Source of the DNA: a virus
Direction: 5' to 3' (one strand)
Virus record (IMG/VR): IMGVR_UViG_3300032323_001868
Span: 1 to 64,000 of that record
DNA: 64,000 bases
The position numbers were made by a program, and so were the translations under genes. Each line of letters begins with the position of its first letter. Within the stretch, counting starts at the first letter, position 1. The notes beneath the pieces are model-generated. The model saw only the letters and a list, made by a program, of their open reading frames with translations. It was not told where the DNA came from and made no database searches. Below, piece by piece: positions 5,762-32,179 of this stretch.

Positions 5762-5790
5762 ACAACCTGAGTAAGTTGTAAAACTGCTCA
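5762..5790 (+). ncRNA. H-type pseudoknot repeat, copy A
   Basis: ACAAC-C-TGAGTA-A-GTTGT-AAAAC-TGCTCA. Confidence 0.7.
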
Positions 5791-5830
5791 TTCTTTGCTA
5801 TAATAGATGTAACAAACTTTAGGAGGGTTT

Positions 5831-6616
5831 ATGGCTATCAAAGGCTCATTAGAAGCAATTATTGAAGTTGCTAAGAAAGAAGTTGGAACTATCGAGGGTC
5901 CAAAAGACAACGAAACAAAGTATGGTAAGTGGACAGGTGCAAACTTTCAGCCATGGTGTCAGTCATTTGTTTCTTGGACTGCATTTACATCTGGATTAGA
6001 TCCAAAGAAGTATCCAAAGTCTGCATCTACAGTTGCAGCAGCAGATTGGTTTAAAAAGAATAATCGTTGGGCAGATGCTCGCAACGATGATCCAACTCCA
6101 GGAGACTGGATTTATTTTGATTTCCCAGATGATGGTGTAAATCGTATTTCACATGTTGGTCTTTGCATTAAGAACAATGGCGATGGAACAATTCAAGTTA
6201 TTGAAGGAAACACTTCAGGCACTGCAAAGGGAGACCAACGCAATGGCGGAATGTGTGTAGAGAAGACTCGTGCTTATGTAAAGAACAAAAAGGGACTTCT
6301 TAACGCAGTTGTTGGTTGGGGTCGTCCAGTTTATGCAGGAGAAGAAAACGCTCCACTACTATCAAAGGGTGGTGCTGTATCAGAGTCAGTACCTACAGCA
6401 AAGCCAACAGCAAAGAAGGCTGCAGCATTTAAACCACTTAAGAATGGTTCAAAGGGCGCAGGAGTAAAAACTGTACAAACACTTCTTGGAATTAAAGCAG
6501 ATGGTGCTTTTGGTCCAGGTACTGCAAAGGCTGTTCAAGACTTTCAGAAGAAGTCTGGACTACCAACAACAGGAGTAGTAGATCAGGCAACTCTAAAAGC
6601 ACTAAAGGCCAAGTAG
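5831..6616 (+). CDS. endolysin: CHAP amidase plus peptidoglycan-binding domain
   Basis: PWCQSFVSW, SHVGL, IEGNT; C-terminal ADGAFGPGT..AV..FQ..G.VD..T. Confidence 0.9.
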   Translation: MAIKGSLEAIIEVAKKEVGTIEGPKDNETKYGKWTGANFQPWCQSFVSWTAFTSGLDPKKYPKSASTVAAADWFKKNNRWADARNDDPTPGDWIYFDFPDDGVNRISHVGLCIKNNGDGTIQVIEGNTSGTAKGDQRNGGMCVEKTRAYVKNKKGLLNAVVGWGRPVYAGEENAPLLSKGGAVSESVPTAKPTAKKAAAFKPLKNGSKGAGVKTVQTLLGIKADGAFGPGTAKAVQDFQKKSGLPTTGVVDQATLKALKAK

Positions 6617-6617
6617 T

Positions 6618-6836
6618 ATGGAATCAAAGAAGAGGTCACTCTTAAAAACAATTAGTTGGCCGTTTGTACATTTTATATTTGTTTCTGGAATAATCTATCT
6701 TGTTCTTAAGTATTTTACTGGAGAAGCAGAGTGGGAGTACGTAGGTCTATATGGACTATCATACCTAACACTGGAAATGTTATTTTACTTTACCCACGAA
6801 AGATTGTGGGCTAAGTTTGGAAACAAGGTAAAGTAA
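6618..6836 (+). CDS. DUF2061-like membrane protein
   Basis: ESKKRSLLKTISW...YFTHERLW. Confidence 0.7.
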   Translation: MESKKRSLLKTISWPFVHFIFVSGIIYLVLKYFTGEAEWEYVGLYGLSYLTLEMLFYFTHERLWAKFGNKVK

Positions 6837-6945
6837 TGAAATTTAAAATAATTTCATTTGTTGCCAATCTTCTTGGATACCAACTTGGGAAGCAGTTTCC
6901 AGGATCTCCAGTTTGGCTTTTAAGGGAAAAGAAAAAGTCAAAGTA

Positions 6946-7122
6946 ATGCCAATATATGATTATAGATGCACACAGTGCTCTAGTTCTGTTGAATACAAAA
7001 GAGATTTTGGCGACAGTACTGAGCCTGTGTGCTGTAATGAAATAATGCAGCGTCAATGGCAATCGCCAGGCGTGGTATTTAATGGCTCTGGTTTTTATTC
7101 CACAGATAATAGAAAACGATAG
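6946..7122 (+). CDS. FmdB-family zinc-ribbon protein
   Basis: MPIYDYRC..C...FNGSGFYSTD. Confidence 0.8.
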   Translation: MPIYDYRCTQCSSSVEYKRDFGDSTEPVCCNEIMQRQWQSPGVVFNGSGFYSTDNRKR

Positions 7123-7847
7123 TGACTGACTTTAATAAAGCAAAAAAACTAACAGAAGAGTTAGAGGATGCTGTTGGATATGGAACAGAAGATTTTGCTA
7201 TTTTTTTATATAGTTTAATTAAAATGCGTAAGCCAGAAAACATAGTTGAGTTAGGTACTGGCGTTGGATCAACAATGCTTTGGTCTGCATTAGCCTGCAA
7301 AGAAAATGGTTTTGGCAAAGTTACTACAGTAGATAATGGCCTTCACTGGGTAGAAGATATTCAGCATTACGATAATAGTTTATTTAAAGGTAAAAAATAT
7401 TTTGAATTTATTAATCAAATAATTAGTGAATATGATATAAAAGATTATGTTGTATTTAAAAATGAAAATATTGATATAGAGTCACTTAACAGTATTGACT
7501 TTAAAATAGATATACTTTTTGCTGACTTTGATCATGGTCCTGATACAGTTCAAAATATTATTGTAAGTTGTTTAGATAAAGTATCTGATGAATCAATAAT
7601 ATTTATAGACTCTGCCTCAACCTATTATCCATCTTATCTCTTGTTAGAGTCTTTAGTTAATAAGTTAAACTCAAATACTTTGACAGATAGTTTAAACTTA
7701 AATGATGAGGCAAAAAAGTTTATAGGTAAGTCAAAGTTTAACCTTGTTCATATTATTGAAGATAAGGATAGATCACAAAATAGCACAGCAATGATTGAAA
7801 TTAAACCTAAAAGTGAGTTTCCCAATAGCAAATTTATTAGGTTTTGA
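7122..7847 (+). CDS. class I SAM-dependent methyltransferase (Methyltransf_24-like)
   Basis: VELGTGVG, IDILFADFDH. Confidence 0.75.
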   Translation: MTDFNKAKKLTEELEDAVGYGTEDFAIFLYSLIKMRKPENIVELGTGVGSTMLWSALACKENGFGKVTTVDNGLHWVEDIQHYDNSLFKGKKYFEFINQIISEYDIKDYVVFKNENIDIESLNSIDFKIDILFADFDHGPDTVQNIIVSCLDKVSDESIIFIDSASTYYPSYLLLESLVNKLNSNTLTDSLNLNDEAKKFIGKSKFNLVHIIEDKDRSQNSTAMIEIKPKSEFPNSKFIRF

Positions 7848-7883
7848 TTTGCCTATGCTCTTGATTGGTAGTATAATAGTAGT

Positions 7884-8105
7884 ATGACAACTGATACAAT
7901 GGAAGATATCTGGGTACTAGATGCTACTGATAGATGCGACTCATGCTATGCACAAGCCTATGTTAAGGTAATCGGTAAGGCTGGTGAACTACTGTTCTGC
8001 AGCCATCACTATAATAAAATCATAGACAATGCTGTTGGTTATGATAAAATTATGAAGTTTATGGTAGAAATAATTGATGAAAGAAAGAGGCTAGAAAATG
8101 GGTAA
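7884..8105 (+). CDS. small Cys/His zinc-binding protein, actinobacterial type
   Basis: DRCDSCYAQAYV..LLFCSHH; leaderless. Confidence 0.65.
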   Translation: MTTDTMEDIWVLDATDRCDSCYAQAYVKVIGKAGELLFCSHHYNKIIDNAVGYDKIMKFMVEIIDERKRLENG

Positions 8106-8246
8106 TAATAAGCATCCGTTCAATACTACACAAATTAAAAACGGAAGAATTGTTAAACTAAGAAAAGATGGACGAATAAAGGCAGACCTTGGTCCATACT
8201 ATGTCAATCATAATAAACCTGTAGTTCGTAAGGCTGGTAACTAAAC

Positions 8247-8654
8247 ATGTATCAGTACTATGTTCGTAAGGTAGAGAATGTCGTTGATGGAGATACCATC
8301 GATGTTTTAATTGATTTAGGGTTTGACATTTTGTTTTCATCTCGTGTTCGTCTTGCTGGTATTGATACCCCAGAGTCACGAACAAGAGATCTAAAAGAAA
8401 AAGCGCTAGGCCTTGAGTCTAAAGAGTATCTAAAGAAGGCTTTGAAGGATGCTAAGTCTGTTGTAATTAAGACTGAGAAGATGGATTCATCAGAAAAGTA
8501 TGGTCGTATTCTAGGATGGATTTATATTAATGATGATACCGAATCAATCAATGATAAGATGATTAATGATGGGTATGCTTGGGGATATATGGGAGATACC
8601 AAGGTAAAGGATTTTGAGGCACTTAAAAAGGCTAGAGCAAAGTCTGGTAAGTAA
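8247..8654 (+). CDS. thermonuclease (SNase-like)
   Basis: VVDGDTID, RVRLAGIDTPE, KYGRILG. Confidence 0.9.
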   Translation: MYQYYVRKVENVVDGDTIDVLIDLGFDILFSSRVRLAGIDTPESRTRDLKEKALGLESKEYLKKALKDAKSVVIKTEKMDSSEKYGRILGWIYINDDTESINDKMINDGYAWGYMGDTKVKDFEALKKARAKSGK

Positions 8655-8908
8655 TGAGACACATACTTTACTTTACTGCTGATTGGTGCAACCCTTGTAA
8701 GCGTACCAAGCCTATTGCTGAAGAACTTGATAGAGACAATGTAATTAAGTTTCAGTTTATTGATGCTGATGACAATGGTGATCTTTGCAGGAAGTTTGAG
8801 ATTAAAGCAATACCAACATTTATTTTAATTGAAGACAACAAAGAAGTACGCCGTATGAATGGTGCCAAAACAAGAGAGCAGATTGAGGAGTTTATCAACG
8901 GTGAATAA
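8654..8908 (+). CDS. thioredoxin
   Basis: FTADWCNPCK, IPTF. Confidence 0.9.
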   Translation: MRHILYFTADWCNPCKRTKPIAEELDRDNVIKFQFIDADDNGDLCRKFEIKAIPTFILIEDNKEVRRMNGAKTREQIEEFINGE

Positions 8909-9227
8909 TGAAGATGCTATTATCGATGATTTAATTCTTCAGGGTGCCCTAGAAGTTGCAGGTATTGACAGTAAAACTGGTGAGTTTTTATATTCAGTTA
9001 CACCAAAAATGAAAGATATAATGCCAGATTTATATGAAGAGCACTTAAATACTGTTAACAAGGAGATCATGGCTTTATGGGAAATGGGGTTTGTTGATAT
9101 AGACTTCAGCGAAGATAATCCTTTGGTTAGGCTAAACTTTAAAGCACATGATGACAAAGAGATTGCCGAACTTTCTAAAGATCTTAAGTGGGCTTTAGAT
9201 GAAATTAAGCGTCATTTCATGGGTTAA
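8901..9227 (+). CDS. hypothetical protein
   Basis: GTG start after GAGGAG, coupled to thioredoxin. Confidence 0.65.
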   Translation: MNNEDAIIDDLILQGALEVAGIDSKTGEFLYSVTPKMKDIMPDLYEEHLNTVNKEIMALWEMGFVDIDFSEDNPLVRLNFKAHDDKEIAELSKDLKWALDEIKRHFMG

Positions 9228-9265
9228 ACTCTGATATAATGGTTAGATAGTATAAGGAGGTTCCC

Positions 9266-10312
9266 ATGCCATATAAGGTAGGATCAAAGGGTTCATATGG
9301 TTGTTCTGGCTACCCTGCAGTTAAAGAGGGTGGAGAAGTTATGGGATGCCACAAGACAAGAGCAGAAGCAGCAGCACAAATTTATGCAATAAATCGTAGT
9401 GAGGGTAACATTGGCAAATCTATGCCAAACCTTAAAGAGGGCGATTTTGCTATGACTGCACATGGTGGAGATGAAGAATTTCATATTGGTCAAGTAGTTC
9501 ATGTAATGCGTGAAGGAATGCTTGGCGTTCCAGGTGGCGAATATACACTTGAAGCAACTCCAGATAATCCTGCGGTACTAATTCAGTTATTTGAACAAGA
9601 AGATAGTGGCTTATGGGAAGCAACAAGAACATATTCAGCATGTATGATGAGTTTATTTATTGCAATTGATCCTCTACCAGTTGAACCAGAACTAACAATT
9701 GAAGATATGCCTAATATGAATGCACAACCAGATCTTATGGATGCATATGATAACTCAATTGGAAAGACAGAATGTTGTCCTGATGAAATTTCTAAGCAAG
9801 CACCTTGCTGGGATGGATATGTGCAGCGTGGTATGAAGCCAGGAGATGGTGGAAGAATGGTTCCTAACTGTGTACCTGCAGCAAAAGCAGATGACCTTTG
9901 GGAAGATGATGATACAGTAGTTTATGAAACAGACTCTGTTGAAAAGGCAGAAGGGTACTCACCACCTGCGGGAGCAAGATCTGCAGCAAGAAAAGCAATT
10001 AAATTTAAAGAAGATGGTAAGGCTAAGGGTGCAGGCACAGCAGTAGGTTGGACTCGTGCTGGACAACTTGCAAGAGGAGAAACACTATCTCTTAGTACTG
10101 TTAAAAGAATGTACTCATACTTCTCAAGACATGAAGTTGACAAGAAGGGTAAGAACTGGGCAAACCAGTCTGATCCATCAAATGGTTACATCATGTGGCT
10201 TGCATGGGGTGGAGATGCTGGATTCTCTTGGTCACGAGGCATTGTAGAGCGTGAAAAGAAGAAAGCAGATTCTACTTGGGTAGGAAGCGCATTTAGTTTT
10301 AGAAAGCCATAG
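9266..10312 (+). CDS. multi-domain hypothetical phage protein
   Basis: AAGGAGG RBS; CWDGY..MVPNCVP and RAGQLARGE..SYFSRH..WGGDAG blocks. Confidence 0.75.
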   Translation: MPYKVGSKGSYGCSGYPAVKEGGEVMGCHKTRAEAAAQIYAINRSEGNIGKSMPNLKEGDFAMTAHGGDEEFHIGQVVHVMREGMLGVPGGEYTLEATPDNPAVLIQLFEQEDSGLWEATRTYSACMMSLFIAIDPLPVEPELTIEDMPNMNAQPDLMDAYDNSIGKTECCPDEISKQAPCWDGYVQRGMKPGDGGRMVPNCVPAAKADDLWEDDDTVVYETDSVEKAEGYSPPAGARSAARKAIKFKEDGKAKGAGTAVGWTRAGQLARGETLSLSTVKRMYSYFSRHEVDKKGKNWANQSDPSNGYIMWLAWGGDAGFSWSRGIVEREKKKADSTWVGSAFSFRKP

Positions 10313-10313
10313 C

Positions 10314-10736
10314 ATGATATATTTGCTGGCAATACCTTTGACATTGCTTGTTTTTTGGTCTATAATTGTTATAGTAAAGAAAATAAATAAAAGAAACAAT
10401 TCCTATGTAATATATCGTCAAAGCGATATGCATAATATGTTAAAGTATTTTTTTTCTTTGGGTGTAGAAAATCAAGAAAAACCTTCTTCTCAGTTGACAA
10501 AGCGACTAGAAAAGGATATGATTAGTGTAGTTGTTTATGGAAACCAGGCATACTGGGTTTCAGATAACACATTCTATGTTGCAGATGCTTTCAACGGTGA
10601 AGTAAATACTGAAACCGCAAAGCCAGTAAATGTAGAGTCTATGTCTAAGTTAGAAGTTGAAAAAATGCTATCCATACTGGATAGTTTAAAGAATGGAAAA
10701 GTAAAAAATGATCGTAGCAGTACAGGGAACGAATGA
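10314..10736 (+). CDS. hypothetical protein with N-terminal TM
   Basis: ORF track, operon position. Confidence 0.6.
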   Translation: MIYLLAIPLTLLVFWSIIVIVKKINKRNNSYVIYRQSDMHNMLKYFFSLGVENQEKPSSQLTKRLEKDMISVVVYGNQAYWVSDNTFYVADAFNGEVNTETAKPVNVESMSKLEVEKMLSILDSLKNGKVKNDRSSTGNE

Positions 10737-11058
10737 TTTTGATGATTACAACATCTTCATTCGTGCAATGGGTGTGGCACTATCTGGCATGCCTGAAGAA
10801 GATAAAGAGTTCGTAATCTATTCTGCTGGTCCTGCTCGTATTAATTCTTTTGTTTCAGAGTTCTCAAATTTATCTGAGCGTGGAATGAAAGCAAGGGGTC
10901 GTAAGATAAAGTTTTACAAGGTTGCAAACAATTGGCTTGAAGAAAATATAAATCAAGTTAACTACTTTGCATTTTTAAGTAGACCAAAACAACCTAATTC
11001 AAAGTTAGTTGATATTGCTGAAAAGAATAATATTGAAGTCGGTCTTTTTCGTTACTAA
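10708..11058 (+). CDS. hypothetical protein (SLOG/YspA-like fold possible)
   Basis: MIVAVQGTNDFDDY start resembles SLOG proteins. Confidence 0.45.
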   Translation: MIVAVQGTNDFDDYNIFIRAMGVALSGMPEEDKEFVIYSAGPARINSFVSEFSNLSERGMKARGRKIKFYKVANNWLEENINQVNYFAFLSRPKQPNSKLVDIAEKNNIEVGLFRY

Positions 11059-11070
11059 GTGGGGGATAAA

Positions 11071-11280
11071 ATGATTATAGATAGTTTAGAAACAATGGAA
11101 AAAATTGTTGCATCAAATAGATCTTTAGCCTGGATTGGCTGGGATGTTGCAGAAAGAAAGAAAACCGATATGGGCAGAACTGCTGTCAACGGTATTAGAG
11201 TCAATGGTCAATGGTACACACAACGAGTATTCAAACTTGATCGAAACGGCTGGGATATTCCAAACAGATATAAAGGATAA
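11071..11280 (+). CDS. hypothetical protein
   Basis: GGGGA RBS, operon position. Confidence 0.6.
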   Translation: MIIDSLETMEKIVASNRSLAWIGWDVAERKKTDMGRTAVNGIRVNGQWYTQRVFKLDRNGWDIPNRYKG

Positions 11281-11282
11281 AC

Positions 11283-11564
11283 ATGAAACAGCACATATGG
11301 AAAGATAGTGCTTCATGTTTAGGTCTTGAAACTAACATCTTTTTTGATAAGTATGAAGATGATCCAACATTGCGTCTAGCAATAGATTCAATTTGTAGTT
11401 CATGTCCAGTTGCAAAGCAATGTTTTGCGGTAGGAGTTTCTGGAAAAGAGTGGGGTGTCTGGGGCGGTGTTTATATTGAGGCTGGCGAAATATCTAGAGA
11501 GTTTAATAATCACAAAAGTAAAAACGATTGGGCACAAACATGGAAAACATTGACAATGGATTAA
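11283..11564 (+). CDS. whiB: WhiB-family Fe-S transcription factor
   Basis: four Cys (C..ICSSCPVAKQC) and EWGVWGG. Confidence 0.9.
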   Translation: MKQHIWKDSASCLGLETNIFFDKYEDDPTLRLAIDSICSSCPVAKQCFAVGVSGKEWGVWGGVYIEAGEISREFNNHKSKNDWAQTWKTLTMD

Positions 11565-11724
11565 GAGAAATAAAACTATTTGATACTTTGGATGTGCCAG
11601 TTGTTCTGACTGTTAAAACAAAGGCTCCTGAAAAATGGCTTTTGATTGATAGAGAGACTGGGCAAATATTTCAGGGTAGTCATAGGGGGCACTGGGACAG
11701 ACTAGACCCAGTGATAAAAGACTA

Positions 11725-11955
11725 ATGTATACAGATGCTATGCGTAGAGCGTTTCATTCTATACAGGCTCCAGAAGGTTTTTCTGTTGATATTATTGACA
11801 ACGACTCATTTCTTACTGTAAAATTAGATGAAAAGGTTTTTATGTGGATGAGTCATGATGAAAAGGTTCAGGCCTTACAGTATGTGGTTAATCTAAAGAA
11901 TGCCTTAGAGATGGAAGGTGCGATTGTGCTGGTTACTAGGGAGGCTATAAAATGA
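11725..11955 (+). CDS. hypothetical protein
   Basis: ORF track, translational coupling. Confidence 0.6.
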   Translation: MYTDAMRRAFHSIQAPEGFSVDIIDNDSFLTVKLDEKVFMWMSHDEKVQALQYVVNLKNALEMEGAIVLVTREAIK

Positions 11956-12374
11956 TTACAAATGTAATAATTGCATGTCTTTCTTTAATATCAGTTCTTT
12001 CATTTTTTGCATATTACTTGTCTCTTAAAAAATTATCCAAGTTAACAGAACATTGTGCAAAATTGTTTATTGATAATATGACTTTACAAAAATTTGTTGA
12101 TGACGAGTTATTTAAAAATACAACAGATCAAGAAGTTCACAAAGAAAACTTTATTAAGTTTTTATCTGATTCTAGAGATTGGGCATTCACATACATAGAA
12201 GATGTTCAGTCTGGACTTTCTGAATTTATTGAAGATATAAAACCAGAAATAGAATATTTTAAAGAGTATGGCGACACAGTTTCTATGCAACCAAACTATT
12301 ACTCAATGAAAAAAATCACAGAAGCATATGATAAGTTAGTTAAACTACTGCCAGAAGAAGAAAGCAAGCAGTAA
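11952..12374 (+). CDS. hypothetical protein with N-terminal TM
   Basis: ORF track, coupling. Confidence 0.6.
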   Translation: MITNVIIACLSLISVLSFFAYYLSLKKLSKLTEHCAKLFIDNMTLQKFVDDELFKNTTDQEVHKENFIKFLSDSRDWAFTYIEDVQSGLSEFIEDIKPEIEYFKEYGDTVSMQPNYYSMKKITEAYDKLVKLLPEEESKQ

Positions 12375-12428
12375 AATAACATATGGCTATATGCTATACT
12401 AATACAAAGACAATCCTAGGAGGGAAAT

Positions 12429-12728
12429 ATGTCACATCATAACGAAAAGCAAGCACAACTTAAGGCACTACTGGCTTCATATGGTCGTTCAGTACTTGCA
12501 TCAGGGCTAGCGCTATACATGGCGGGAGTTACAGATCCAAAGGATCTATGGACAGCACTAGTTGCTGCAATTGCTCCAGTAGCCATTAGAGCAATCAATC
12601 CTAATGACAAGGCATTTGGTGTACTTCCAGATGCTGCAACAGTTGATAAGGCTCTGAAGACTGCTAAGGCACCTGCTAAGAAGGCTGCTAAGAAGGTCGC
12701 TAAGAAGGCTGCTCCAAAGAAGAAGTAG
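12429..12728 (+). CDS. holin-like membrane protein with Lys/Ala-rich (PAKKA) tail
   Basis: two TM helices, NPND..FG, AKKAAKK tail. Confidence 0.55.
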   Translation: MSHHNEKQAQLKALLASYGRSVLASGLALYMAGVTDPKDLWTALVAAIAPVAIRAINPNDKAFGVLPDAATVDKALKTAKAPAKKAAKKVAKKAAPKKK

Positions 12729-12741
12729 TTACAAATAGATT

Positions 12742-12772
12742 GGCCAGTCTAGAGATAGGCTGGCCTTTCTTT
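12742..12772 (+). terminator. intrinsic terminator
   Basis: GGCCAGTCTA-GAGA-TAGGCTGGCC followed by TTTCTTT. Confidence 0.8.
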
Positions 12773-12792
12773 GTAATGGTATACTGTTAAAT

Positions 12793-14113: not shown

Positions 14114-14114
14114 C

Positions 14115-14828: not shown

Positions 14829-14829
14829 T

Positions 14830-25247: not shown

Positions 25248-25418
25248 TATAGTTTCCCCTCAATGTTGGTGGAGTCACAGTCTGCACAGTGCCCATTGGA
25301 TACATCATCATACCAGTCTGTCTCTACATCTTCAAGTTCCCCCGCAGAATTATATATACCTAACTTGTGAGATGTTTCATCATACCAAAACTTATTAGTC
25401 TGGCCACAATCAAGGCAC

Positions 25419-25700
25419 TTAGGCATTCTTGTTAGTCCTATCTGATATAGCAAATGCTAGTTGATATGTAAGGGCATAGACACTAGACAAAGCGTCCATG
25501 TATCCTGAATTATATAAGCGCTCAACGGTGTCTTCATATTCCTCATCAGAACCAAGTTCATCAGAGTTCTCCAGCAGAGGCACGAGTATCTTCTCACACT
25601 CATACATCATATTCTTAAGTTCACCATGGAGGATATCAGTACCTGACTCTCCTAGGTCTACGAGTTTTTGCAGTCTTGGGTTTAGTTGTGTTGTTTCCAT
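25419..25700 (-). CDS. hypothetical early protein, predicted leaderless
   Basis: ATG falls exactly at predicted +1 of promoter 25707-25728. Confidence 0.65.
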   Translation of the reverse strand: METTQLNPRLQKLVDLGESGTDILHGELKNMMYECEKILVPLLENSDELGSDEEYEDTVERLYNSGYMDALSSVYALTYQLAFAISDRTNKNA

Positions 25701-25706
25701 TACTCT

Positions 25707-25728
25707 ATCATATCCTGTGCCACTGACA
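25707..25728 (-). promoter_or_regulatory. PafBC/RecA-NDp-type promoter
   Basis: TGTCAG-TGGCACAGGA-TATGAT. Confidence 0.7.
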
Positions 25729-25860
25729 AAAGGTGGCGGGTATTATAAATCTCAGCCTCTTTAGTCCTATAGAAATGATGACTATTAACATAGTCAATCT
25801 TCTCAAGGTCTTGCATAAGACTTATCTCATGTATCTTCATATACTCAATGAAGGCATGCA

Positions 25861-26043
25861 TTAGATTACTTCTTCATCTAGTTCGACTTCATCTTCTTCA
25901 TACTGTTCATCTACCTCAATAGAATAAACTTCAGGGAATCCGTAGTCCTCGTACTCCCAGCCCATCTTTTCTGCTTCTTCTTCGTTGTCTGCTTCTACTT
26001 CGTAGTTGTATTCTACAATCACCTTCAGGTCATACATTGGCAT
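25861..26043 (-). CDS. acidic hypothetical protein
   Basis: GAAAGGA RBS; EVEADNEEEAE. Confidence 0.65.
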   Translation of the reverse strand: MPMYDLKVIVEYNYEVEADNEEEAEKMGWEYEDYGFPEVYSIEVDEQYEEDEVELDEEVI

Positions 26044-26662
26044 TGTGGGATTTCCTTTCTGTGGTCTTAATATTAATTATAAGGGTTGGTGTTGATTTTT
26101 ACAACTTTTGAGGATGTGATACTAATCACAGGGGCCATCTGTTCTGGCTCTACCGCTGTTCTTACGACAAAGGTATCCAATGAGCAAACACAGGCGGGAT
26201 CGTGATTAGGAGTCTTATTAGTGATAACTTCCATCAGGGCATCACAATCAGTACAAACATAACTATACTTGGTCCACATAGGCAACCTCCATTAAATAAG
26301 CATCAGTATCACATACATCACATAGGTGTACATAATCACTGTCGTCCCAATTAGACATACACATGTTACACCTGGTCATCATCCCTCCCAATATTGCATA
26401 ATGGTATTCATTGTGATATGGAGATTGCAATCACAGTCTTCTCCACCCATGTTCTCATGGAACTCAAAGTGTGATAGGTTGTCCTCATAAATTTCCATTA
26501 CGAGTTCTGATATTGTGTATGGTTTGTAGGTGGTAGTCATATATTAATTGTAGCCTAGAACCTGGGAAAAATCAACTCTATCGTAATTACTTTTTTAATT
26601 GTATTTATTTAGTTACTGATAAGTATGTCCTATTTGTACCATTTTGGAACGTCCCGCATTTG

Positions 26663-26736
26663 CGATCTGTACGGGACTTGAACCCGTGATCTCTACCGTG
26701 ACAGGGTAGCGAATTAACCAACTATTCTAACAGACC
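26663..26736 (-). tRNA. tRNA-Asp(GTC)
   Basis: GGTCTGT/ACAGATC, CTACC-CTGTCAC-GGTAG, GGTTCAAGTCC; no CCA. Confidence 0.9.
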
Positions 26737-26738
26737 AG

Positions 26739-26767
26739 TGAGCAGTTTTATTTCATGCTCAGGAAAT
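26739..26767 (-). ncRNA. H-type pseudoknot repeat, copy B
   Basis: ATTTC-C-TGAGCA-T-GAAAT-AAAAC-TGCTCA. Confidence 0.72.
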
Positions 26768-26771
26768 TGTA

Positions 26772-27788
26772 TCATGCTAGTTGCATGACATTCTGCACAA
26801 CTTTCAGCAGACGATTCTTTTCTGCGTTGATAGCAGGGTCAAATCCACTTGCACTTGCAAGGATAGATTCGTTATTGCCACCTCGTGCTGTACGATACCA
26901 GTCAAGGCGTTCTGTAAGTGCATTGAAAGCGCCCCATGCAGAGCCAGCAATCATGCCGTTAAATTCGCCTGTGTAAATATCGTTGATAATATCTACCTTG
27001 TTCTCCCACTTCTTGACGGCACCCTTAGAATCTTTTTCAGGCTTAGGGTAAGCAGCGAGAATAATATCGTTGAATTGCTTAGCATTGACTTCCTTCTCGA
27101 ACATAGCCTTAGCCATGATGTCAAATTCGTCCATGTATGCATTAGCAAGACCAAGAGTCTCACGAGCAATCTGCACTTTACCATTGGCAGTCTGCGTGTG
27201 GCGAATCTTGAATGATTGCTTGATACCATTCTTCTTCTTGCGTGAGCCTAGTGCAAGATTAAGAGTATTAGCGCACACCACACGAACAGGTGTAATGCTT
27301 GCTTGAATAGCGATTGAGCCATCGTGTGATGTGTTGATGAGCAAATAAGTCTTTACCTTATCTGCAACACCGCTAGGGTCTAGTACAGTCTCACGCTCTA
27401 ATGCAAGAGAGCCGAATACTACACGCCCACCCTTGATAGCGCCAGCGGTTTCCCAACGACCACCACCATCTAGGATATTGTCACCGAATGAGAATAAGTC
27501 TTCATTCTGCAATACATGATAACGCTCACCAACTACACCAAGAACATCTGTCTGGGTATTAGTTGTAGGGTTAGTGCGTACGACATATTGGTATTCTTTG
27601 TCGCTTGTTAAGTGTGATGGAATTGGCATTTCTTCAAGACGAACATTCCAACCATTGAGGTTTGCAGCCTCTAGCATTTCTGCGGTTGTTTTTTCTTCTG
27701 TGAATACAGTACCCAATCCATGCCATGCAGGTTCACGGAAAGATGCAAAAGATGCCTTGCCGTTTTGTGATTCTAGGTCATGTGCCAT
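26772..27788 (-). CDS. DUF932 / TIGR03299-like phage protein
   Basis: REPAWHGLG, Y..LQN, ETAG...GG..VF, SHDGS, TPVRVVCANTL, RHT. Confidence 0.85.
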   Translation of the reverse strand: MAHDLESQNGKASFASFREPAWHGLGTVFTEEKTTAEMLEAANLNGWNVRLEEMPIPSHLTSDKEYQYVVRTNPTTNTQTDVLGVVGERYHVLQNEDLFSFGDNILDGGGRWETAGAIKGGRVVFGSLALERETVLDPSGVADKVKTYLLINTSHDGSIAIQASITPVRVVCANTLNLALGSRKKKNGIKQSFKIRHTQTANGKVQIARETLGLANAYMDEFDIMAKAMFEKEVNAKQFNDIILAAYPKPEKDSKGAVKKWENKVDIINDIYTGEFNGMIAGSAWGAFNALTERLDWYRTARGGNNESILASASGFDPAINAEKNRLLKVVQNVMQLA

Positions 27789-27820
27789 GAGTGTTTCTCC
27801 TTTTTGTTGTTGATAATATA

Positions 27821-27842
27821 ACTATACACCAAGCCAGCGACA
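27821..27842 (-). promoter_or_regulatory. PafBC/RecA-NDp-type promoter
   Basis: TGTCGC-TGGCTTGGTG-TATAGT. Confidence 0.6.
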
Positions 27843-27953
27843 TATGCAAATCAGGATAGTTAGATGTGTACAAATCGGACATTTTTAAGGGTGTCGTAAT
27901 TCACATCGTAAATACTTGACAAGATCAACTTTTGCGGGACGTGCAATAAAAAG

Positions 27954-27984
27954 TGAGCCGTTTACATGGACAATGCTCAGGTCC
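27954..27984 (-). ncRNA. H-type pseudoknot repeat, copy C
   Basis: GGAC-C-TGAGCA-TT-GTCC-ATGTAAAC-GGCTCA. Confidence 0.62.
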
Positions 27985-28030
27985 CTTGCCTAGTTTAAAG
28001 ACATTCGACATGTCTATTAGTAGCCCCCTA

Positions 28031-28483
28031 CTAAATATTATCCTCTGCCTGAATTGAGCGGGTATCAACATTGAAATCATCGATTGAATAATCAAATGAG
28101 TCAACACTGAATTCAAGTGTGTTGGCCACATCATCTGCGTCAACATCAAATGGTACTTCAATCTCAATCTCAAACTCTACAACTGCATTAACAGTTACAG
28201 TCTTGGTTAGTTCAAAGTCACCAATCTGTGCAAACATCTCTGCAACCTCGTGAGTGAACTCACGGTTACCAAGGCATTCAATAACATATTCTTTGATTGC
28301 ATCCTTGGTTGCTTGGTGTGCTCGTTGTTCTGCATACAATGATTGTGAGTGTTCGGATGAACGGTCCTGCAATGAGACAATCATCGCATCCTTCTTCTCA
28401 ATTAATTCCTGCAGCGCTACAGCCTGATTCTGAAGAAATTCTCGTGTCATGTAGTATTCATTGGTTAGTACTGGCTGGTCCAT
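28031..28483 (-). CDS. hypothetical early protein (coiled-coil N half)
   Basis: GAAAGAGG RBS. Confidence 0.7.
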   Translation of the reverse strand: MDQPVLTNEYYMTREFLQNQAVALQELIEKKDAMIVSLQDRSSEHSQSLYAEQRAHQATKDAIKEYVIECLGNREFTHEVAEMFAQIGDFELTKTVTVNAVVEFEIEIEVPFDVDADDVANTLEFSVDSFDYSIDDFNVDTRSIQAEDNI

Positions 28484-28515
28484 GGGGGCCTCTTTCTGTT
28501 GTTGTTATTAATATA

Positions 28516-28537
28516 AGTCTAGCAGCGGGTACCGACA
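28516..28537 (-). promoter_or_regulatory. PafBC-type promoter, full consensus
   Basis: TGTCGG-TACCCGCTGC-TAGACT. Confidence 0.75.
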
Positions 28538-28576
28538 AATGCAACTTAATGGTCTTAATAGTCTTACATATTGGGA

Positions 28577-28592
28577 TGTGATTAATCTCACA
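28577..28592. promoter_or_regulatory. CRP/GlxR-type box
   Basis: TGTGA-TTAATC-TCACA. Confidence 0.7.
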
Positions 28593-28616
28593 CTGCACGT
28601 CGCAAAAAACAGTGAG

Positions 28617-28645
28617 TGAGCAGTTTTATATCATGCTCAGGATAT
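28617..28645 (-). ncRNA. H-type pseudoknot repeat, copy D
   Basis: ATATC-C-TGAGCA-T-GATAT-AAAAC-TGCTCA. Confidence 0.72.
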
Positions 28646-28649
28646 TTAA

Positions 28650-28820
28650 TTACTTAGATGTTTTCACCATTGCAAATCGGTGTGAGCCGTTTGCTAACTT
28701 TAGTGAAACTCTAGTAAGTTTAGAGTTGATAGGTGTGAAGTTGCTAATGCGACCAGTAACACCTGTCTTGCTTGTGGTGAACAGATCACCGATTTGATAT
28801 GTATATCCGCCTAGTGTCAT
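28650..28820 (-). CDS. small beta-rich (SH3/KOW-like) protein, 56 aa
   Basis: MTLGGYTYQIGDLFTTSKTGVTG..; AAAGGA RBS; paralog of 29537..29698. Confidence 0.7.
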   Translation of the reverse strand: MTLGGYTYQIGDLFTTSKTGVTGRISNFTPINSKLTRVSLKLANGSHRFAMVKTSK

Positions 28821-28858
28821 TTGTTTTTTCCTTTTGTTAGTGGTGGTATTAAATTGTG

Positions 28859-28887
28859 TGAGCAGTTTTGGCTCTTACTCAGGAGGT
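28859..28887 (-). ncRNA. H-type pseudoknot repeat, copy E (short stem 1)
   Basis: CTC-C-TGAGTA-A-GAG-CCAAAAC-TGCTCA. Confidence 0.55.
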
Positions 28888-28989
28888 CTGCTTCTTTAGG
28901 TCTGCAGTAACCTTGCTCTATAGTATTTCTATTATCGCCCTAATCAGCCTGGCGAAATGAGTGGGGCTTTTACACCCCACCCAACTTTG

Positions 28990-29412
28990 CTAGAGGTAGC
29001 GAGCCACCGCATTGTATGTTGAAGTATTAACTACTTCTTCATCTGTCATCTTGAGGATACGAATTGCGTTTGTGATTTCTTCCTTCTGCTCACGATATGT
29101 GTGCTGATGGATAACCTCGAAATCCTTAGTTGGCTCTGTTGGCATATCCTTTTCGGATACTGTCAAATCGAAGTCAATGTTAAGGCAGTTATTCCATGAA
29201 CGATATGAAGTGCGGAAGTTTTCTGCCTTCTTGATGTTTGCTACTGCATAGTCAATAAGTTCCTTCTTATACTTCTCATACTGCTTTTGATACTTTGCTT
29301 CGTTGGCTTCTTGTGATGTGTAGTCTGCTTCTAGTTTAGCAAGTGCGCCTTCTAGTGCCTTGATTACCTTTGGTGTTGCGATTTTAACTGAGATTGCTTT
29401 TGCTCTTGACAT
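28990..29412 (-). CDS. hypothetical early protein
   Basis: AAAGGA RBS, strong codon bias. Confidence 0.75.
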   Translation of the reverse strand: MSRAKAISVKIATPKVIKALEGALAKLEADYTSQEANEAKYQKQYEKYKKELIDYAVANIKKAENFRTSYRSWNNCLNIDFDLTVSEKDMPTEPTKDFEVIHQHTYREQKEEITNAIRILKMTDEEVVNTSTYNAVARYL

Positions 29413-29459
29413 GGTGTTCCTTTTCTTTGGTGGTTGATATTTCTATTATAGGGGGTGGA

Positions 29460-29487
29460 TAAGCCTTTTTGCAACTTGCTTAGGTTG
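29460..29487 (-). ncRNA. H-type pseudoknot repeat, variant copy G
   Basis: CAAC-C-TAAGCA-A-GTTG-CAAAAA-GGCTTA (compensated stem 2). Confidence 0.6.
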
Positions 29488-29536
29488 GTTCACGCCTCTT
29501 GTTTATAGTGGCTGTACGCTAACCACTATGAAAGGC

Positions 29537-29698
29537 TTACGCCTTCCAAGTTGTCCAGCGTGTTGAGCCATTTACATCTAACTTAACACGAACTGTGTCC
29601 TTTGATGTTGGTACGATTTCAACGATTGTGCCTGTGACCTTTGACTTCTGTGAAGTGTAAGTGTCGCCGACCTTGTATGTTGCTACTGCTACTGTCAT
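29537..29698 (-). CDS. small beta-rich (SH3/KOW-like) protein, 53 aa
   Basis: MTVAVATYKVGDTYTSQKSKVTG..; GAAAGGA RBS. Confidence 0.7.
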   Translation of the reverse strand: MTVAVATYKVGDTYTSQKSKVTGTIVEIVPTSKDTVRVKLDVNGSTRWTTWKA

Positions 29699-29804
29699 GT
29701 TTTTTCCTTTTCTGTGTTGGTTTGTTATATTTCTAGTATATCCGAGAAATCTCAGAAATACAATTCCTAGCCTAGAGAATCTCATATTTTGAGACCCTTT
29801 CCCC

Positions 29805-29820
29805 TGTGATATAGGTCACA
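29805..29820. promoter_or_regulatory. CRP/GlxR-type box
   Basis: TGTGA-TATAGG-TCACA. Confidence 0.7.
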
Positions 29821-29887
29821 AGTTGCCTGTGATAAATAGGATAAGGAAACATATCCCTAGCCATAGTATGAATTTGTCCATAGTTCC

Positions 29888-30610
29888 CTACTTTTTGGTT
29901 GCACTAAATACTATATCAGATTTCTCATAAATACACAACTTGCAACTAGCGCATGCAGACCCTTTCTGTGAGATAAGTGGAATAGCCTTTTTATTCTCAG
30001 GGCACTTAGCCCCAGGCTTGCCTGTTAACTCCTTCATGTCTTCTTGTCCTATTAAGAAATTTTTGGCAAGGTATGCAAGGGAGATATTATGATCTGCTTT
30101 AAGTCCTATACCTATAGCCTTATTATCGCTATCTGTGGAATAGTATAGTGAAAGATTAGGAATGTCTTTTAGAATAAGCGCTGCAGACTTAACTCTGGTA
30201 TATACCCAGAATTGAATGTCTGGATACTTATCAACAACTACCTTCCATGCATATGCATAAGTATCATTAAAGAAATCTCCGTCCCAGTGGATACGGAATT
30301 GCTTAGGTGCATTGCGCTTATCGCACTCTGCATTAAAATCATTAATCATTTCATTAAGTAGACGGACCATAGTTTCTCCGTCTGCATTGCGTAGTAGTTC
30401 CCAGTTATGCAATAGGTTTTTCTTTACTGTTGGGAATATCTTTTCTAACTTGCCTGCATAGCAAACACTTTCGCAGACACTAGTAGCGCCAGGACATGAA
30501 TAGTTTTTACCTGCAGGTAATCCGAATGTGTTAGCGATACTTGCTTGTTTTCCATTAGGGGTGACGGCATTAGCAACTTTTCTATCTTTAGAGCGTAGTA
30601 GTTTAGTCAT
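29888..30610 (-). CDS. GP88-family protein (Cys-cluster, radical-SAM-like)
   Basis: FGLPAG..CPGAT..C...CYA, FRIHWDGDF, FW.YTR, C..C.LC. Confidence 0.75.
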   Translation of the reverse strand: MTKLLRSKDRKVANAVTPNGKQASIANTFGLPAGKNYSCPGATSVCESVCYAGKLEKIFPTVKKNLLHNWELLRNADGETMVRLLNEMINDFNAECDKRNAPKQFRIHWDGDFFNDTYAYAWKVVVDKYPDIQFWVYTRVKSAALILKDIPNLSLYYSTDSDNKAIGIGLKADHNISLAYLAKNFLIGQEDMKELTGKPGAKCPENKKAIPLISQKGSACASCKLCIYEKSDIVFSATKK

Positions 30611-30755
30611 GGTGGGACCCTCTTTCTTTTTTTAATTTTAGCATTAGCGACTGACATTTCTTTCTGTCATATTTCTTTTTATTAGGTACCGCAGAGGCCG
30701 CATTGCTACGGCGTAATTCCATAAGCCTGCGTAATTCCTCGGGTGTTTTTTTCAT
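30603..30755 (-). CDS. small basic protein (LRRSNAA motif), leaderless
   Basis: TTGTAT-N17-TAAAAT-N6-ATG. Confidence 0.55.
   Translation of the reverse strand: MKKTPEELRRLMELRRSNAASAVPNKKKYDRKKCQSLMLKLKKERGSHHD
30635..30656 (-). promoter_or_regulatory. PafBC/RecA-NDp-type promoter
   Basis: TGTCAG-TCGCTAATGC-TAAAAT. Confidence 0.68.
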
Positions 30756-30826
30756 ATAATAATTTTAGCAAAAATCAGGGAAAAATACAAGTTGGTCTTA
30801 ATTAGGGTAAATCGGACATTTGTGGT

Positions 30827-30840
30827 GCGGGACGTCCCGC
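30827..30840. repeat. perfect palindrome GCGGGACGTCCCGC (cassette-boundary box)
   Basis: half-sites recur at 23466, 26649, 27934, 32135, 33342. Confidence 0.7.
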
Positions 30841-30845
30841 CTTTG

Positions 30846-31088
30846 CTACTCGTCTTTTTCTATATAAACATAGAGGTCAACATATGTGTCGTGTGCAATT
30901 GTTATTGTATCTGGTTCACCATACACATCAACACAATCGATAAAGTAATTGTCTCCAGTTGAATCAGAATTGATATCAATTACTTCGATGAGTTCATCAT
31001 CAATCTTGATTAGATCATCAGGCATCAGAGAACCTGGTGTTAATTTATCTGCCCATACTAGATCCATGTTGTTTATTGTATCAGCCAT
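30846..31088 (-). CDS. hypothetical early protein
   Basis: ORF track. Confidence 0.6.
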   Translation of the reverse strand: MADTINNMDLVWADKLTPGSLMPDDLIKIDDELIEVIDINSDSTGDNYFIDCVDVYGEPDTITIAHDTYVDLYVYIEKDE

Positions 31089-31164
31089 TTATTCGTCCTC
31101 TTCGCTAGAAATACATTCATAACAATCACAATATTTTGAGTGGGGAATAAAAAAATCTTCCATA

Positions 31165-31500
31165 TTACCCCTCATCATATTCTAGTGAGAGTGGGAAGTC
31201 ATCAGACCCATCTTGCCAGTCATCGGCTGGCTCAATAAATACATCAAGGTGATGCTGGTCTACGATAGCGTGTGCAGGTGCTTGAGTTTCTCCACGATAA
31301 AGAATCTGAAAGTCACCAACCTTCGGCATGTCAATCATGCGGTCATAGTCCTCATCATAGAAGGCGTCAATGGCTTCAATGCAAGGTTGCACCATTTCTG
31401 CGGGGACTGGAGGATAGTGATTAGCCTTAAGGTGATAGAGAATCTGAGTCTCCAAGTCAAGGACTTCTTCTTTAATTCCTAGTGCTGTAACTGAACCCAT
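31165..31500 (-). CDS. hypothetical early protein
   Basis: HL.ANHYPPVP..MV.PC.EAI, IVDQHHL. Confidence 0.7.
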   Translation of the reverse strand: MGSVTALGIKEEVLDLETQILYHLKANHYPPVPAEMVQPCIEAIDAFYDEDYDRMIDMPKVGDFQILYRGETQAPAHAIVDQHHLDVFIEPADDWQDGSDDFPLSLEYDEG

Positions 31501-31501
31501 A

Positions 31502-31717
31502 TTACTTACCCCCTACATTTCCATTACGATAAAAGATTTTGGTGTGCATTTTGCCATTAGGCTCTGACAAGTTAATTGTGCGATATTCTTTTGCATCTCC
31601 ATAGTCGTTGCATGCCATGAACGCACCAACGGCAGAAAGAGCATCACTATAGCGACCAACCCATTCAGGGCTAGTGCTATTGTCATTAGTTGAAGTAACT
31701 GAGTATAAGTATTCCAT
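31502..31717 (-). CDS. hypothetical early protein
   Basis: AAGGAG RBS. Confidence 0.65.
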   Translation of the reverse strand: MEYLYSVTSTNDNSTSPEWVGRYSDALSAVGAFMACNDYGDAKEYRTINLSEPNGKMHTKIFYRNGNVGGK

Positions 31718-32008
31718 TAGTTGTAACTCCTTTTACATTCTGAGCATAGATAGTTTAATTTGCAATAGCAACCTACTGCGTTTGGGCGGAGCATATCCGT
31801 TTCATAGTATTCGTCATAGAAATCCATACTAGTTAGCCTCTTTTGTTAGGAATAGTTGGTCAATGTAGTCATAGCCTATCATGGCTTCTACCTCTCGGTC
31901 AAGGTAGCAACGGAAGCAATAGAGTTCGGTTACATCTACTGCATTTTCATTACACTGCATGCATACATGTGCGGTCATGGGAGCCTTCTTTCTTAAGTTG
32001 ATATAAAT

Positions 32009-32030
32009 ATCCTATCATATGGGGGTGACA
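32009..32030 (-). promoter_or_regulatory. PafBC/RecA-NDp-type promoter
   Basis: TGTCAC-CCCCATATGA-TAGGAT. Confidence 0.62.
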
Positions 32031-32069
32031 AAGTGAAGTTCATAAGCCAAGTTCTGCGAAAATTAATGG

Positions 32070-32085
32070 TGTGAACTTAATCACA
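32070..32085. promoter_or_regulatory. CRP/GlxR-type box
   Basis: TGTGA-ACTTAA-TCACA. Confidence 0.7.
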
Positions 32086-32094
32086 CTTAATGCC

Positions 32095-32134
32095 TGTGGA
32101 TAACTACCTGGCTTGTGGATAACCCTGTGGAAAA
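32095..32134 (-). promoter_or_regulatory. three DnaA boxes
   Basis: TTATCCACA at 32095 and 32114, TTTTCCACA at 32126 (minus strand). Confidence 0.72.
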
Positions 32135-32150
32135 CGGGACGTTGAAAATT

Positions 32151-32179
32151 TGAGCAGTTTTAGATCGTGCTCAGGATTT
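32151..32179 (-). ncRNA. H-type pseudoknot repeat, copy F
   Basis: AAATC-C-TGAGCA-C-GATCT-AAAAC-TGCTCA. Confidence 0.68.

Follow-up and report, generated by a model that had tools for sequence, protein, structure and literature searches.

The DNA examined here, a stretch of 64,000 nucleotides (nt) that we call the window, is the start of an 89.8-kb phage record (IMG/VR record IMGVR_UViG_3300032323_001868; 37% G+C). It carries a 29-nt RNA element with the fold of an H-type pseudoknot in seven copies, six of them canonical and one a variant. As judged from sequence comparisons, these repeats were shown to be real, autonomous and self-contained pseudoknots of the sense strand, under strong selection. 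On the same grounds, we tentatively favor the idea that the knot is a self-folding gene-end boundary, which would shield or define the ends of messages.

Fold and occurrence of the pseudoknot

The fold consists of a stem 1 of 4-5 base pairs (bp), a single C as loop 1, a stem 2 formed by UGAGCA and UGCUCA, a 1-nt loop 2 and the loop 3 AAAAC. Stem 1 was analyzed in an alignment of 138 copies, 132 from outside the window and six from within, gathered with a search pattern that left this stem free. Pairs 9-22 and 10-21 of the alignment were formed in 138/138 copies, with four and three pair types, respectively, and pair 8-23 in 85%. The closing pair, C11-G20, was present in 226 of the 227 unique copies defined below and in all 150 rows of a further alignment. 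None of 500 shuffles reached the covariation score of stem 1, and sliding the partner strand by one to three columns lowered pairing to 25-36%. The fifth pair (7-24) was at chance level. Thus, the earlier claim that stem 1 changes sequence while keeping its pairing holds for a helix that is solid over 4 bp and fails for the fifth pair; the copy at 28859 has only three contiguous pairs.

A covariance model (R1) was built from the 138 copies with stem 1 alone encoded; compensation in stem 2 could therefore not be favored among the copies it recovered. Run on the viral loci, it brought the total up to 241 matches, 227 of them unique. Each of the four core pairs of stem 2 (14-34 to 17-31) was broken in 0/227 copies, and double changes were found in 10, 2, 1 and 1 copies, 14 in all. 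Pair 14-34 was GC in 209 copies, AU in 10 and GU in eight; pair 15-33 was AU in 225 and GC in two; pair 16-32 was GC in 226 and AU in one; and pair 17-31 was CG in 181, UG in 45 and UA in one. Every copy with A14 had U34 (10/10), and the picture was unchanged in the 150-row alignment. The compensatory swap to UAAGC/GCUUA, first noticed in the copy at 29460, is therefore real and recurs in 10 copies elsewhere, and the original prediction of an RNA-level H-type pseudoknot with covariation in both stems stands on 138 copies for stem 1 and 227 for stem 2. The outer pairs of stem 2 are dispensable. Pair 13-35 was unpaired in 42 copies, and pair 18-30 was A-G in 16, each time together with a C29-to-A change. 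This linked CU-to-AG double change at the loop 3/stem 2 junction (AAAAAGGCUCA; for example L040:13515-13559, L024:4512-4556 and 29450-29494 of the window) removes the A18-U30 pair with no visible compensating partner.

The unpaired positions are constrained as well. The C of loop 1 and the AAA of loop 3 (A26-A28) were found in 227/227 copies, and G was nearly excluded from the two bases following the knot (1 and 4 of 227). Pairing of a G at these positions with the loop-1 C would be in competition with stem 1, so that the depletion of G reads as negative design for the knot. Because U-G wobbles are frequent in stem 2, as in the 45 copies at pair 17-31, the complementary strand cannot fold alike and the fold is sense-specific. 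A helix enclosing the motif was sought, and complementarity between the flanks equaled that of cross-paired controls. When the motif was compared with Rfam 15 (sequences of 5.7 kb and 71 nt), no family was matched at the gathering score or at an expectation (E) value of 10 or less, in agreement with the original failure to assign the element to a named family.

Within the window, a degenerate motif pattern gave six exact matches, at 5767 on the plus strand and at 26739, 28617, 28859, 29460 and 32151 on the minus strand; the shuffled window gave 0.41 matches even with two mismatches allowed. The seven copies of about 29 nt originally counted were all recovered, the six canonical ones scoring 31.7-55.1 bits with R1 and the variant 10.9 bits, and their reported placement on the coding strand was confirmed, all seven lying on the sense strand of the flanking open reading frames (ORFs). 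No additional copy was found in the remaining 25.8 kb of the phage genome.

Copy 1 (5762-5790, plus strand; 45.6 bits; an exact pattern match) pairs ACAAC with GUUGU in stem 1 and, through a U-G wobble, UGAGUA with UGCUCA in stem 2. It lies 20 nt past the stop codon of an Hsp20-like ORF (5325-5741) and upstream from an endolysin ORF (5831-6616), both identified through PHROG. The other copies are on the minus strand. Copy 2 (29460-29488; 31.7 bits) has the compensated A14-U34 pair in its UAAGCA/GGCUUA stem 2 and lies 48 nt past the stop of an 82-aa ORF; a sigma-70-like sequence, TTGCAA-18-TATAAT (29474-29445), overlaps its 3′ half. The stop region of the 82-aa ORF (29531-29539, minus strand; UAAGCCUUU) is perfectly complementary to the 3′ half of the same copy (29460-29468; AAAGGCUUA), about 60 nt away, which may reflect an alternative pairing or chance. 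Copy 3 (28859-28887; 44.0 bits), the one with the weak stem 1, is found 102 nt past the stop of a 140-aa ORF and 38 nt ahead of the ATG of a 56-aa ORF; in relatives, the corresponding knot lies 4-5 nt past the stop of a gene ending in ...RYL. Copy 4 (28617-28645; 55.1 bits; stem 1 AUAUC/GAUAU) begins 4 nt past the TAA of the 56-aa ORF, and a run of six U starts 7 nt after it. Copy 6 (26739-26767; 47.8 bits; stem 1 AUUUC/GAAAU) begins 4 nt past the TGA of a 338-aa ORF (phrog_1221) and ends 2 nt before a tRNA-Asp(GUC) gene (26662-26736, minus strand) identified by ARAGORN and Rfam. Copy 7 (32151-32179; 52.3 bits) begins 4 nt past the TAA of an 81-aa ORF and is followed by AAUUUU. The three copies said to start exactly 4 nt after a stop codon, those at 26739, 28617 and 32151, are indeed so placed.

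Copy 5 (27954-27985) is the variant. Its stem 1 is GGAC/GUCC, the 3′ strand of its stem 2 is GGCUCA, and a U-run follows directly on the 3′ side. It scores only 10.9 bits (E value 0.47) because its loop 2 (UU, 2 nt) and loop 3 (AUGUAAAC, 8 nt) are longer. Since the long-loop form is kept in relatives at what is apparently the same locus (L038, L068 and L105; 18.8-24.6 bits), copy 5 was accepted as a variant of the knot. In the window and in L038, L068, L105 and L114, the variant knot is preceded by a conserved sequence, UAGUAGGGGGCUAC (28017-28033, minus strand), in which a GUAG-GGGG-CUAC mini-hairpin overlaps a stop codon. The hairpin at 27987-28015 (minus strand), originally taken for a degenerate eighth copy, had to be discarded. 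It gave no R1 match at an E value of 10 or less; in L038 the corresponding hairpin has a mismatched stem pair and, in the loop, a G-to-A change, and L068 and L105 lack it altogether. Nor did it represent a coremin-like form (coremin is the viral RNA described below), as scanning IMG/VR with CGAA-N5-TTTAAACTAG yielded 59 matches of which only four had the stem, a chance level. Likewise rejected was a weak R1 match at 39550-39588 (minus strand), which is antisense to an ORF and has no 5′ strand for stem 2.

The window phage had no close relative among deposited phages by megablast, and a distant search yielded only tRNA and DUF945-type gene matches. It is of lake or freshwater origin: metagenome DNA runs from fresh and lake water (17 studies) contain part of its sequence. 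The knot itself is far more widespread. An exact scan pattern, CCTGAGYA-N6-AAAACTGCTCA, was applied to IMG/VR and to species-representative bacterial and archaeal genomes. The matches listed include at least 119 IMG/VR phage loci with 139 copies, and at least 120 cellular loci were found. Among the matches listed, the cellular ones are mostly from metagenome-assembled genomes, many of Saccharibacteria and other Patescibacteria, with Clostridia, Actinomycetes, Aminicenantes, Cyanobacteria, Desulfobacterota-type lineages, Bacteroidia, one Bathyarchaeia bin and few Gammaproteobacteria. Five whole genomes contained 1-3 copies each. Three cultured phages, Mycobacterium phage Labelle (Patiencevirus), Cyanophage S-RIM4 and Paracoccus phage ParKuw1, have one copy each (32-47 bits). 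To treat the element as one of actinophages or of early mRNAs was thus too narrow: the phages that carry it have many different hosts, and the cellular genomes belong to many phyla.

The core also turned up in CRISPR arrays. At least three spacers contain it in an array whose 30-nt repeat occurs more than 50 times (L233:2400-6400; CP054675.1, Candidatus Tepidiaquacella proteinivora), as does one spacer of a second array-like repeat in a Leptolyngbyaceae bin (L143). Spacers over a core common to many phages could confer broad immunity.

Position relative to genes and other transcript features

Flanking genes were surveyed for 357 copies, a set obtained with a relaxed core pattern from viral loci, cellular loci and the window. 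They formed 132 upstream and 129 downstream clusters, and no gene family co-occurring with the knot was found among the neighbors of the 357 copies. For upstream ORFs of at least 50 codons, the stop codon ended 4 nt ahead of the 5-nt stem-1 segment in 48 copies and 5 nt ahead of it in 28; the distribution decays beyond 5 nt, and the stop was closer in only four copies. This spacing recurs over the 132 unrelated upstream clusters and in the annotated Labelle genome, where the knot lies 4 nt past gene 85 and ahead of a tRNA-Gln; the sequence of the spacer is not conserved. A few copies take the stop from within the motif, either its UGA (eight copies) or a UAA at the stem 1/loop 3 junction (two copies). 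In the commonest register, in-frame continuation usually ends at the junction UAA and the +1 frame at the UGA of the motif.

When the stop codon occupies the ribosomal A site (positions +4 to +6), the first solid pair of stem 1 falls at +12. This is about the first point at which an mRNA duplex can exist in the mRNA channel of the ribosome, so that the knot would be parked as near as folding permits during termination. Spacing sharp to the nucleotide would then provide a natural readout of the ribosome's downstream footprint. The view that the element is placed after genes was thus upheld by the stop spacing and requires amendment for copies that overlap a stop or directly precede tRNAs, the DUF2800 RNA (see below) or a ribosome-binding site.

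In some bacterial bins the knot belongs to a stand-alone unit with a promoter, a ribosome-binding site, a conserved ORF of about 20 codons that uses the UGA of the knot as its stop and, usually, an ordinary terminator thereafter (loci L131, L136, L138, L151, L158, L159, L176, L182, L200, L207, L213, L218, L221 and L237; in variant form, L194, L209 and L232). The taxa include Aminicenantes, Acidimicrobiaceae, Myxococcales, Deltaproteobacteria, Syntrophorhabdus and Thermodesulfobacteriota. The predicted peptide reads M-K-R-F/Y-x-V/I-P-R-x-A-H-C-S-E-G-C-x3-S, and changes at third codon positions showed that the tiny ORF is under selection. The peptide matched no NCBIfam family, and the neighbors of the unit are unrelated housekeeping genes. 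Selenocysteine insertion or read-through at the motif UGA was considered and rejected: several of the tiny-ORF copies read UGA-GCA-UGA, so that there is no conserved extension.

Downstream from the knot the first six bases are G-poor and the next ones U-rich. The first 30 nt after the knot fold no better than shuffled sequence, and abutting hairpins occurred in 23/326 copies, compared with 54/326 at +60 nt and 36/326 in shuffles. A small subclass lacks the last pair of stem 2 and continues into a small stable hairpin, CCC-GCAA-GGG or UCCC-UUCG-GGGA, recalling the second hairpin of coremin (L013:130-174, L042:891-935, L054:1396-1440, L009:4957-5001, L027:5274-5318 and L100:187-231). U-tracts began 0-3 nt after the knot in 46/328 copies (14%, against a background of about 1%) and were associated with an A-tract upstream (odds ratio 2.4, p=0.012). 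In the window, copies 5762, 27954, 28617 and 32151 are followed by U-rich runs, and terminator-like sites in the early region do not exceed chance. Structure plus an immediate U-tract being enriched and still confined to a minority, a standard intrinsic terminator was rejected as a general description.

The elements next in line are diverse. In 30 copies a tRNA starts 2-13 nt downstream; 26 of these are tRNA-Asp, which in related phage contigs probably represent one recurring locus that includes copy 6 of the window. At five loci in phage-like regions of Firmicutes, an RNA confirmed by Rfam as the DUF2800 RNA (RF02960; 135-160 bits) starts at the base right after the knot (L011:285-445, L028:1616-1771, L134:5432-5592, L142:5051-5208 and L167:912-1071), and three more loci share the same downstream sequence. 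The knot may thus mark the 5′ boundary of this RNA. Many copies are followed, 14-42 nt downstream and at no fixed distance, by a start codon with a ribosome-binding site. By a crude ORF classification, most copies lie between co-oriented genes, 38 between convergent and 32 between divergent ones. Three other candidate features were dismissed. A tRNA-like minihelix ending in CCA is not general, since CCA follows the knot in only 21/206 copies, many of them at the single recurring tRNA-Asp locus. A promoter was rejected because a −10 box is rightly spaced only in copies 1 and 2 and promoter-like sites equal the shuffle count. Suspected neighboring hammerheads (CUGAYGAG in L002, L074 and L195) had no Rfam match at the gathering score.

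RNA-side material consisted of assembled contigs from one metatranscriptome (7% of sampled words). One contig stops 5 nt after copy 2, and the next begins 35 nt downstream; another reads straight through copy 3. The break after copy 2 is at most a hint of an RNA end. The Patience phage paper includes no transcript mapping. DNA contigs of relatives have joints at the edges of copies 2, 4, 6 and 7 (window 26737-32178), for example from 26737 to 28618, from 28644 to 29530 and from 26765 to 29537. The conserved core is therefore a place of gene-cassette exchange. Breakpoints occur at both edges of the knot, as plain homology predicts; a core identical across phages accounts both for this recombination joint and for the presence of the core in CRISPR spacers.

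Possible roles of the knot

Under the gene-end boundary reading, which we put forward tentatively, the knot would act in cis on the mRNA. Sitting as near the upstream stop as folding allows while the ribosome terminates, it would serve as a mechanical roadblock, setting the 3′ end of the message upstream and shielding it. Such an end would arise by termination at an adjoining U-tract or, alternatively, by cleavage just downstream, with RNase P cutting where a tRNA adjoins, for instance, or an endonuclease acting on the single-stranded tract. In this way every cistron would obtain a protected end of its own, and the conserved 25-nt core would double, as a by-product, as a recombination joint for cassette shuffling among related phages. 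Definition of a 3′ end was ranked first because coupling to the stop codon is tight while coupling to the following element is loose; because a subset of copies has a U-tract and some lie between convergent genes; because the new 3′ end, if made by RNase P in the tRNA cases, would be 2-13 nt away from the knot; and because the early region of the window phage is without other terminators.

Several points weigh against this proposal. A 6-bp stem 2 would be a modest barrier to 3′-5′ exonucleases such as RNase R, and the sequences of stem 2, loop 1 and loop 3 are kept more strictly than a simple hairpin-type protector of 3′ ends would need. At about 20 bacterial loci the knot overlaps the stop of the tiny ORF and an ordinary terminator comes next; a 3′ protector looks redundant there, and translation must unfold the knot. 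About 32 copies are in divergent contexts resembling 5′ untranslated regions (UTRs), and copy 3 of the window lies 38 nt ahead of a start codon. Finally, the nearest analogue, coremin, blocks enzymes from the 5′ side and not from the 3′ side (PMC6546385, PMC10520033).

The main rival follows from this last point. The knot could be a phage and bacterial counterpart of the viral exonuclease-resistant RNAs (xrRNAs), a coremin-like roadblock to whatever arrives from the 5′ side (RNase J, scanning RNase E, Rho, sliding or read-through ribosomes) that shields a downstream cistron, tRNA or DUF2800 RNA. We consider this rather unlikely, although several observations favor it. The closing pair and the pyrimidine opening the first loop are as in coremin, the AAACU(R)C segment resembles its spacer, and the Watson-Crick stem 2 is as in its selected variant, xrRNA-WCC; these two RNAs stall Xrn1 and scanning ribosomes and stimulate frameshifting (PMC10520033, PMC10321173). 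A 5′-side block would suit the knots that abut the 5′ boundary of the DUF2800 RNA or lie 2-13 nt before tRNAs and 14-42 nt before many starts, the 5′ UTR-like copies, and the small subclass with a stable hairpin right after stem 2, which coremin needs; staying folded behind a terminating ribosome fits it equally well. A study showing that flaviviral xrRNAs act without protein cofactors reportedly also concerns RNase J, and was counted on the same side. Conversely, the hairpin on which the Xrn1 resistance of coremin depends is absent from most copies, the loop fits neither YGAD nor YGNNAD, and the G needed in loop 1 of xrRNA-WCC is replaced by C. Moreover, the 38 copies at convergent gene ends have nothing downstream to protect, tRNAs require no 5′ protection, and it is the distance to the upstream stop that is tight, the distance to the downstream start being loose.

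Improbable, in our estimate, is a pseudoknot-type intrinsic terminator or pause signal for RNA polymerase, with stem 2 instead of a hairpin closing in the RNA exit channel. Abutting U-tracts at some ten times the background frequency and their link to an upstream A-tract are what it would predict; so are the U-rich runs, with promoter-like sites beyond them, after copies 5762, 27954, 28617 and 32151, in an early region whose canonical terminators do not exceed chance. Against this, 86% of the copies are without an abutting U-tract, and many are too close to a tRNA (2-13 nt) or a start codon (14-20 nt) to leave room for a promoter. The tiny-ORF loci have a normal terminator after the knot, and terminator hairpins do not require conserved sequence.

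Strict sequence conservation of stem 2, loop 1 and loop 3 across phyla would be accounted for by a recognition site for a conserved protein or the ribosome: an autoregulatory or nucleating site like that of T4 gene 32, a standby or insulator element for the next gene, or an endoribonuclease target. The stop-codon spacing agrees with ribosome geometry, and the tract between the knot and the ribosome-binding site is unstructured. This idea is no more probable than a terminator, given that no gene family co-occurs with the knot among the 132 upstream and 129 downstream clusters, that a distribution over phages and cells of many phyla would fit a universal partner alone, and that the next start codon follows at widely varying distances (14-42 nt and beyond).

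A minimal self-cleaving ribozyme or a small riboswitch is very improbable. A variable stem 1 combined with invariant loops and stem 2 is typical of such cores, the topology is that of preQ1-I, and some copies are located at the boundaries of tRNAs and of a non-coding RNA. Nonetheless, no Rfam match was obtained even at an E value of 10 or less on 71 nt, loop 2 varies where preQ1-I has its ligand-reading C, a metabolite switch would not be expected next to such diverse genes, and there is neither an expression platform nor an enclosing helix. A length of 29 nt is below that of any known natural self-cleaver, and the suspected hammerhead neighbors were not confirmed. Lastly, a DNA-level element (a promoter, a hairpin site in single-stranded DNA or a site-specific recombination site delimiting cassettes) would explain the breakpoints between related phages and the sigma-70-like promoters overlapping copies 1 and 2, but is scarcely credible for a strand-specific fold with frequent G-U pairs that is always in sense orientation and in a stop-codon register fixed to the nucleotide, with no more promoter-like sites than in shuffles and breakpoints at both edges as expected from plain homology.

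Comparison with known RNA elements

No description of the family was found in Rfam 15 or in the papers searched, among which the core sequence gave primers only and nothing turned up on phage xrRNAs. To our knowledge, no structured RNA family punctuates bacterial or phage operons in this way. Intrinsic terminators and 3′ stabilizers such as REP elements and retroregulators also lie just after stop codons, some with an A-tract, a structure and a U-tract, and keep 3′ exonucleases from the message upstream. As plain hairpins they have no conserved sequence, whereas the knot is conserved and has an abutting U-tract in 14% of copies only. The pseudoknot in the T4 gene 32 mRNA resembles the phage knot in being a compact H-type fold with a 1-nt loop 1 in an untranslated region, and differs from it as a single site bound by one protein. 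The PeSL cassettes of T4-type phages, each a promoter plus a hairpin and confined to one lineage, are likewise short repeated elements where early-gene cassettes shuffle, but are without pseudoknot covariation. The preQ1-I riboswitch (RF00522) was set aside, there being no Rfam match and the flanking genes being unrelated to queuosine.

Frameshifting pseudoknots of the luteovirus type, such as that of beet western yellows virus, are closer in architecture, with about 28 nt, a C in the short loop 1 and an A-rich loop 3. The phage knot shares these traits, and its 4-5 nt distance from the decoding site is comparable to the 5-9 nt seen there. It follows stop codons, however, and not slippery heptamers. 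A −1 frameshift signal was rejected, as no slippery pattern precedes the stops and no extended reading frame is conserved. We infer a triplex-type geometry like that of luteovirus and coremin-type knots, in which the loop-1 C would lie in the groove of stem 2 and the adenines of loop 3 in the minor groove of stem 1.

The nearest analogues are coremin (xrRNA-C), found in beny-, cucumo- and other plant RNA viruses, and xrRNA-WCC. Knots of the coremin type, similar in design, need no protein to stall Xrn1 and ribosomes (PMC6546385, PMC10520033, PMC10321173). Coremin has a short hairpin with an obligatory C-G closing pair, replacement of which by G-C abolishes function (PMC6546385), and a loop of the form YGAD (4 nt) or YGNNAD (6 nt) whose second position is always G (PMC10520033). 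In its spacer, ...AAACUAC, residues A15-A17, C18, U19 and A20 are essential, and Xrn1 resistance depends on a second hairpin, of 4 bp or more, that directly follows the spacer (PMC6546385, PMC10520033). The knot has the C-G closing pair in 226/227 copies, the pyrimidine as first loop base and the untranslated or intergenic location; both elements are small, and coremin, which acts without protein, is suspected to be an H-type knot with A-minor contacts as well. The segment of the knot that corresponds to the spacer, AAACU(A/G)C, has AAA in 227/227 copies and C and U in 211 each; the next base is G, not A, and is paired in stem 2. On the other hand, the loop of the knot is the 8-nt CUGAGYAN, with U at position 2 and G third, which departs from YGAD and YGNNAD. 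Its stem 2 is a Watson-Crick helix of 5-6 bp in place of the non-canonical contact of coremin, most copies do without the obligatory second hairpin (present in 23/326), and its hosts are DNA phages and bacteria, which are without Xrn1.

xrRNA-WCC is a selected coremin variant in which loop GAG pairs with spacer CUC and a loop-1 G is required; it came from a frameshift screen in E. coli, stimulates −1 frameshifting and is known from selection and from two RNA viruses (PMC10321173). It shares with the knot the H-type fold, a 1-nt loop 1, an A-rich loop 3 and Watson-Crick pairing between loop and spacer (GAGC/GCUC in the knot). Its stem 2 has 3 bp and its loop 1 is G, as opposed to C in 227/227 copies of the knot, and it still needs the second hairpin to resist Xrn1. 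Failing the loop consensus, the loop-1 identity and the second hairpin, the knot is not a member of either group; by analogy, it may nevertheless work like them.

It is possible, if doubtful, that phages and bacteria own a counterpart of the coremin-type RNAs that resist exonucleases and ribosomes: a universal, protein-independent roadblock of about 29 nt between cistrons, placed behind stops at the limit of the ribosome footprint. At such sites it would bring RNase J-type exonucleases, Rho or ribosomes to a halt and determine where individual messages end and how long they last. The knot is tiny, extremely conserved and spread over hundreds of phages, and the proposal can be tested in cultured Mycobacterium, Synechococcus and Paracoccus phages. 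If true, it would account for defined, stable ends of early phage messages without canonical terminators, provide a 29-nt part for insulating cistrons in synthetic operons, and extend the xrRNA concept from eukaryotic RNA viruses to prokaryotes.

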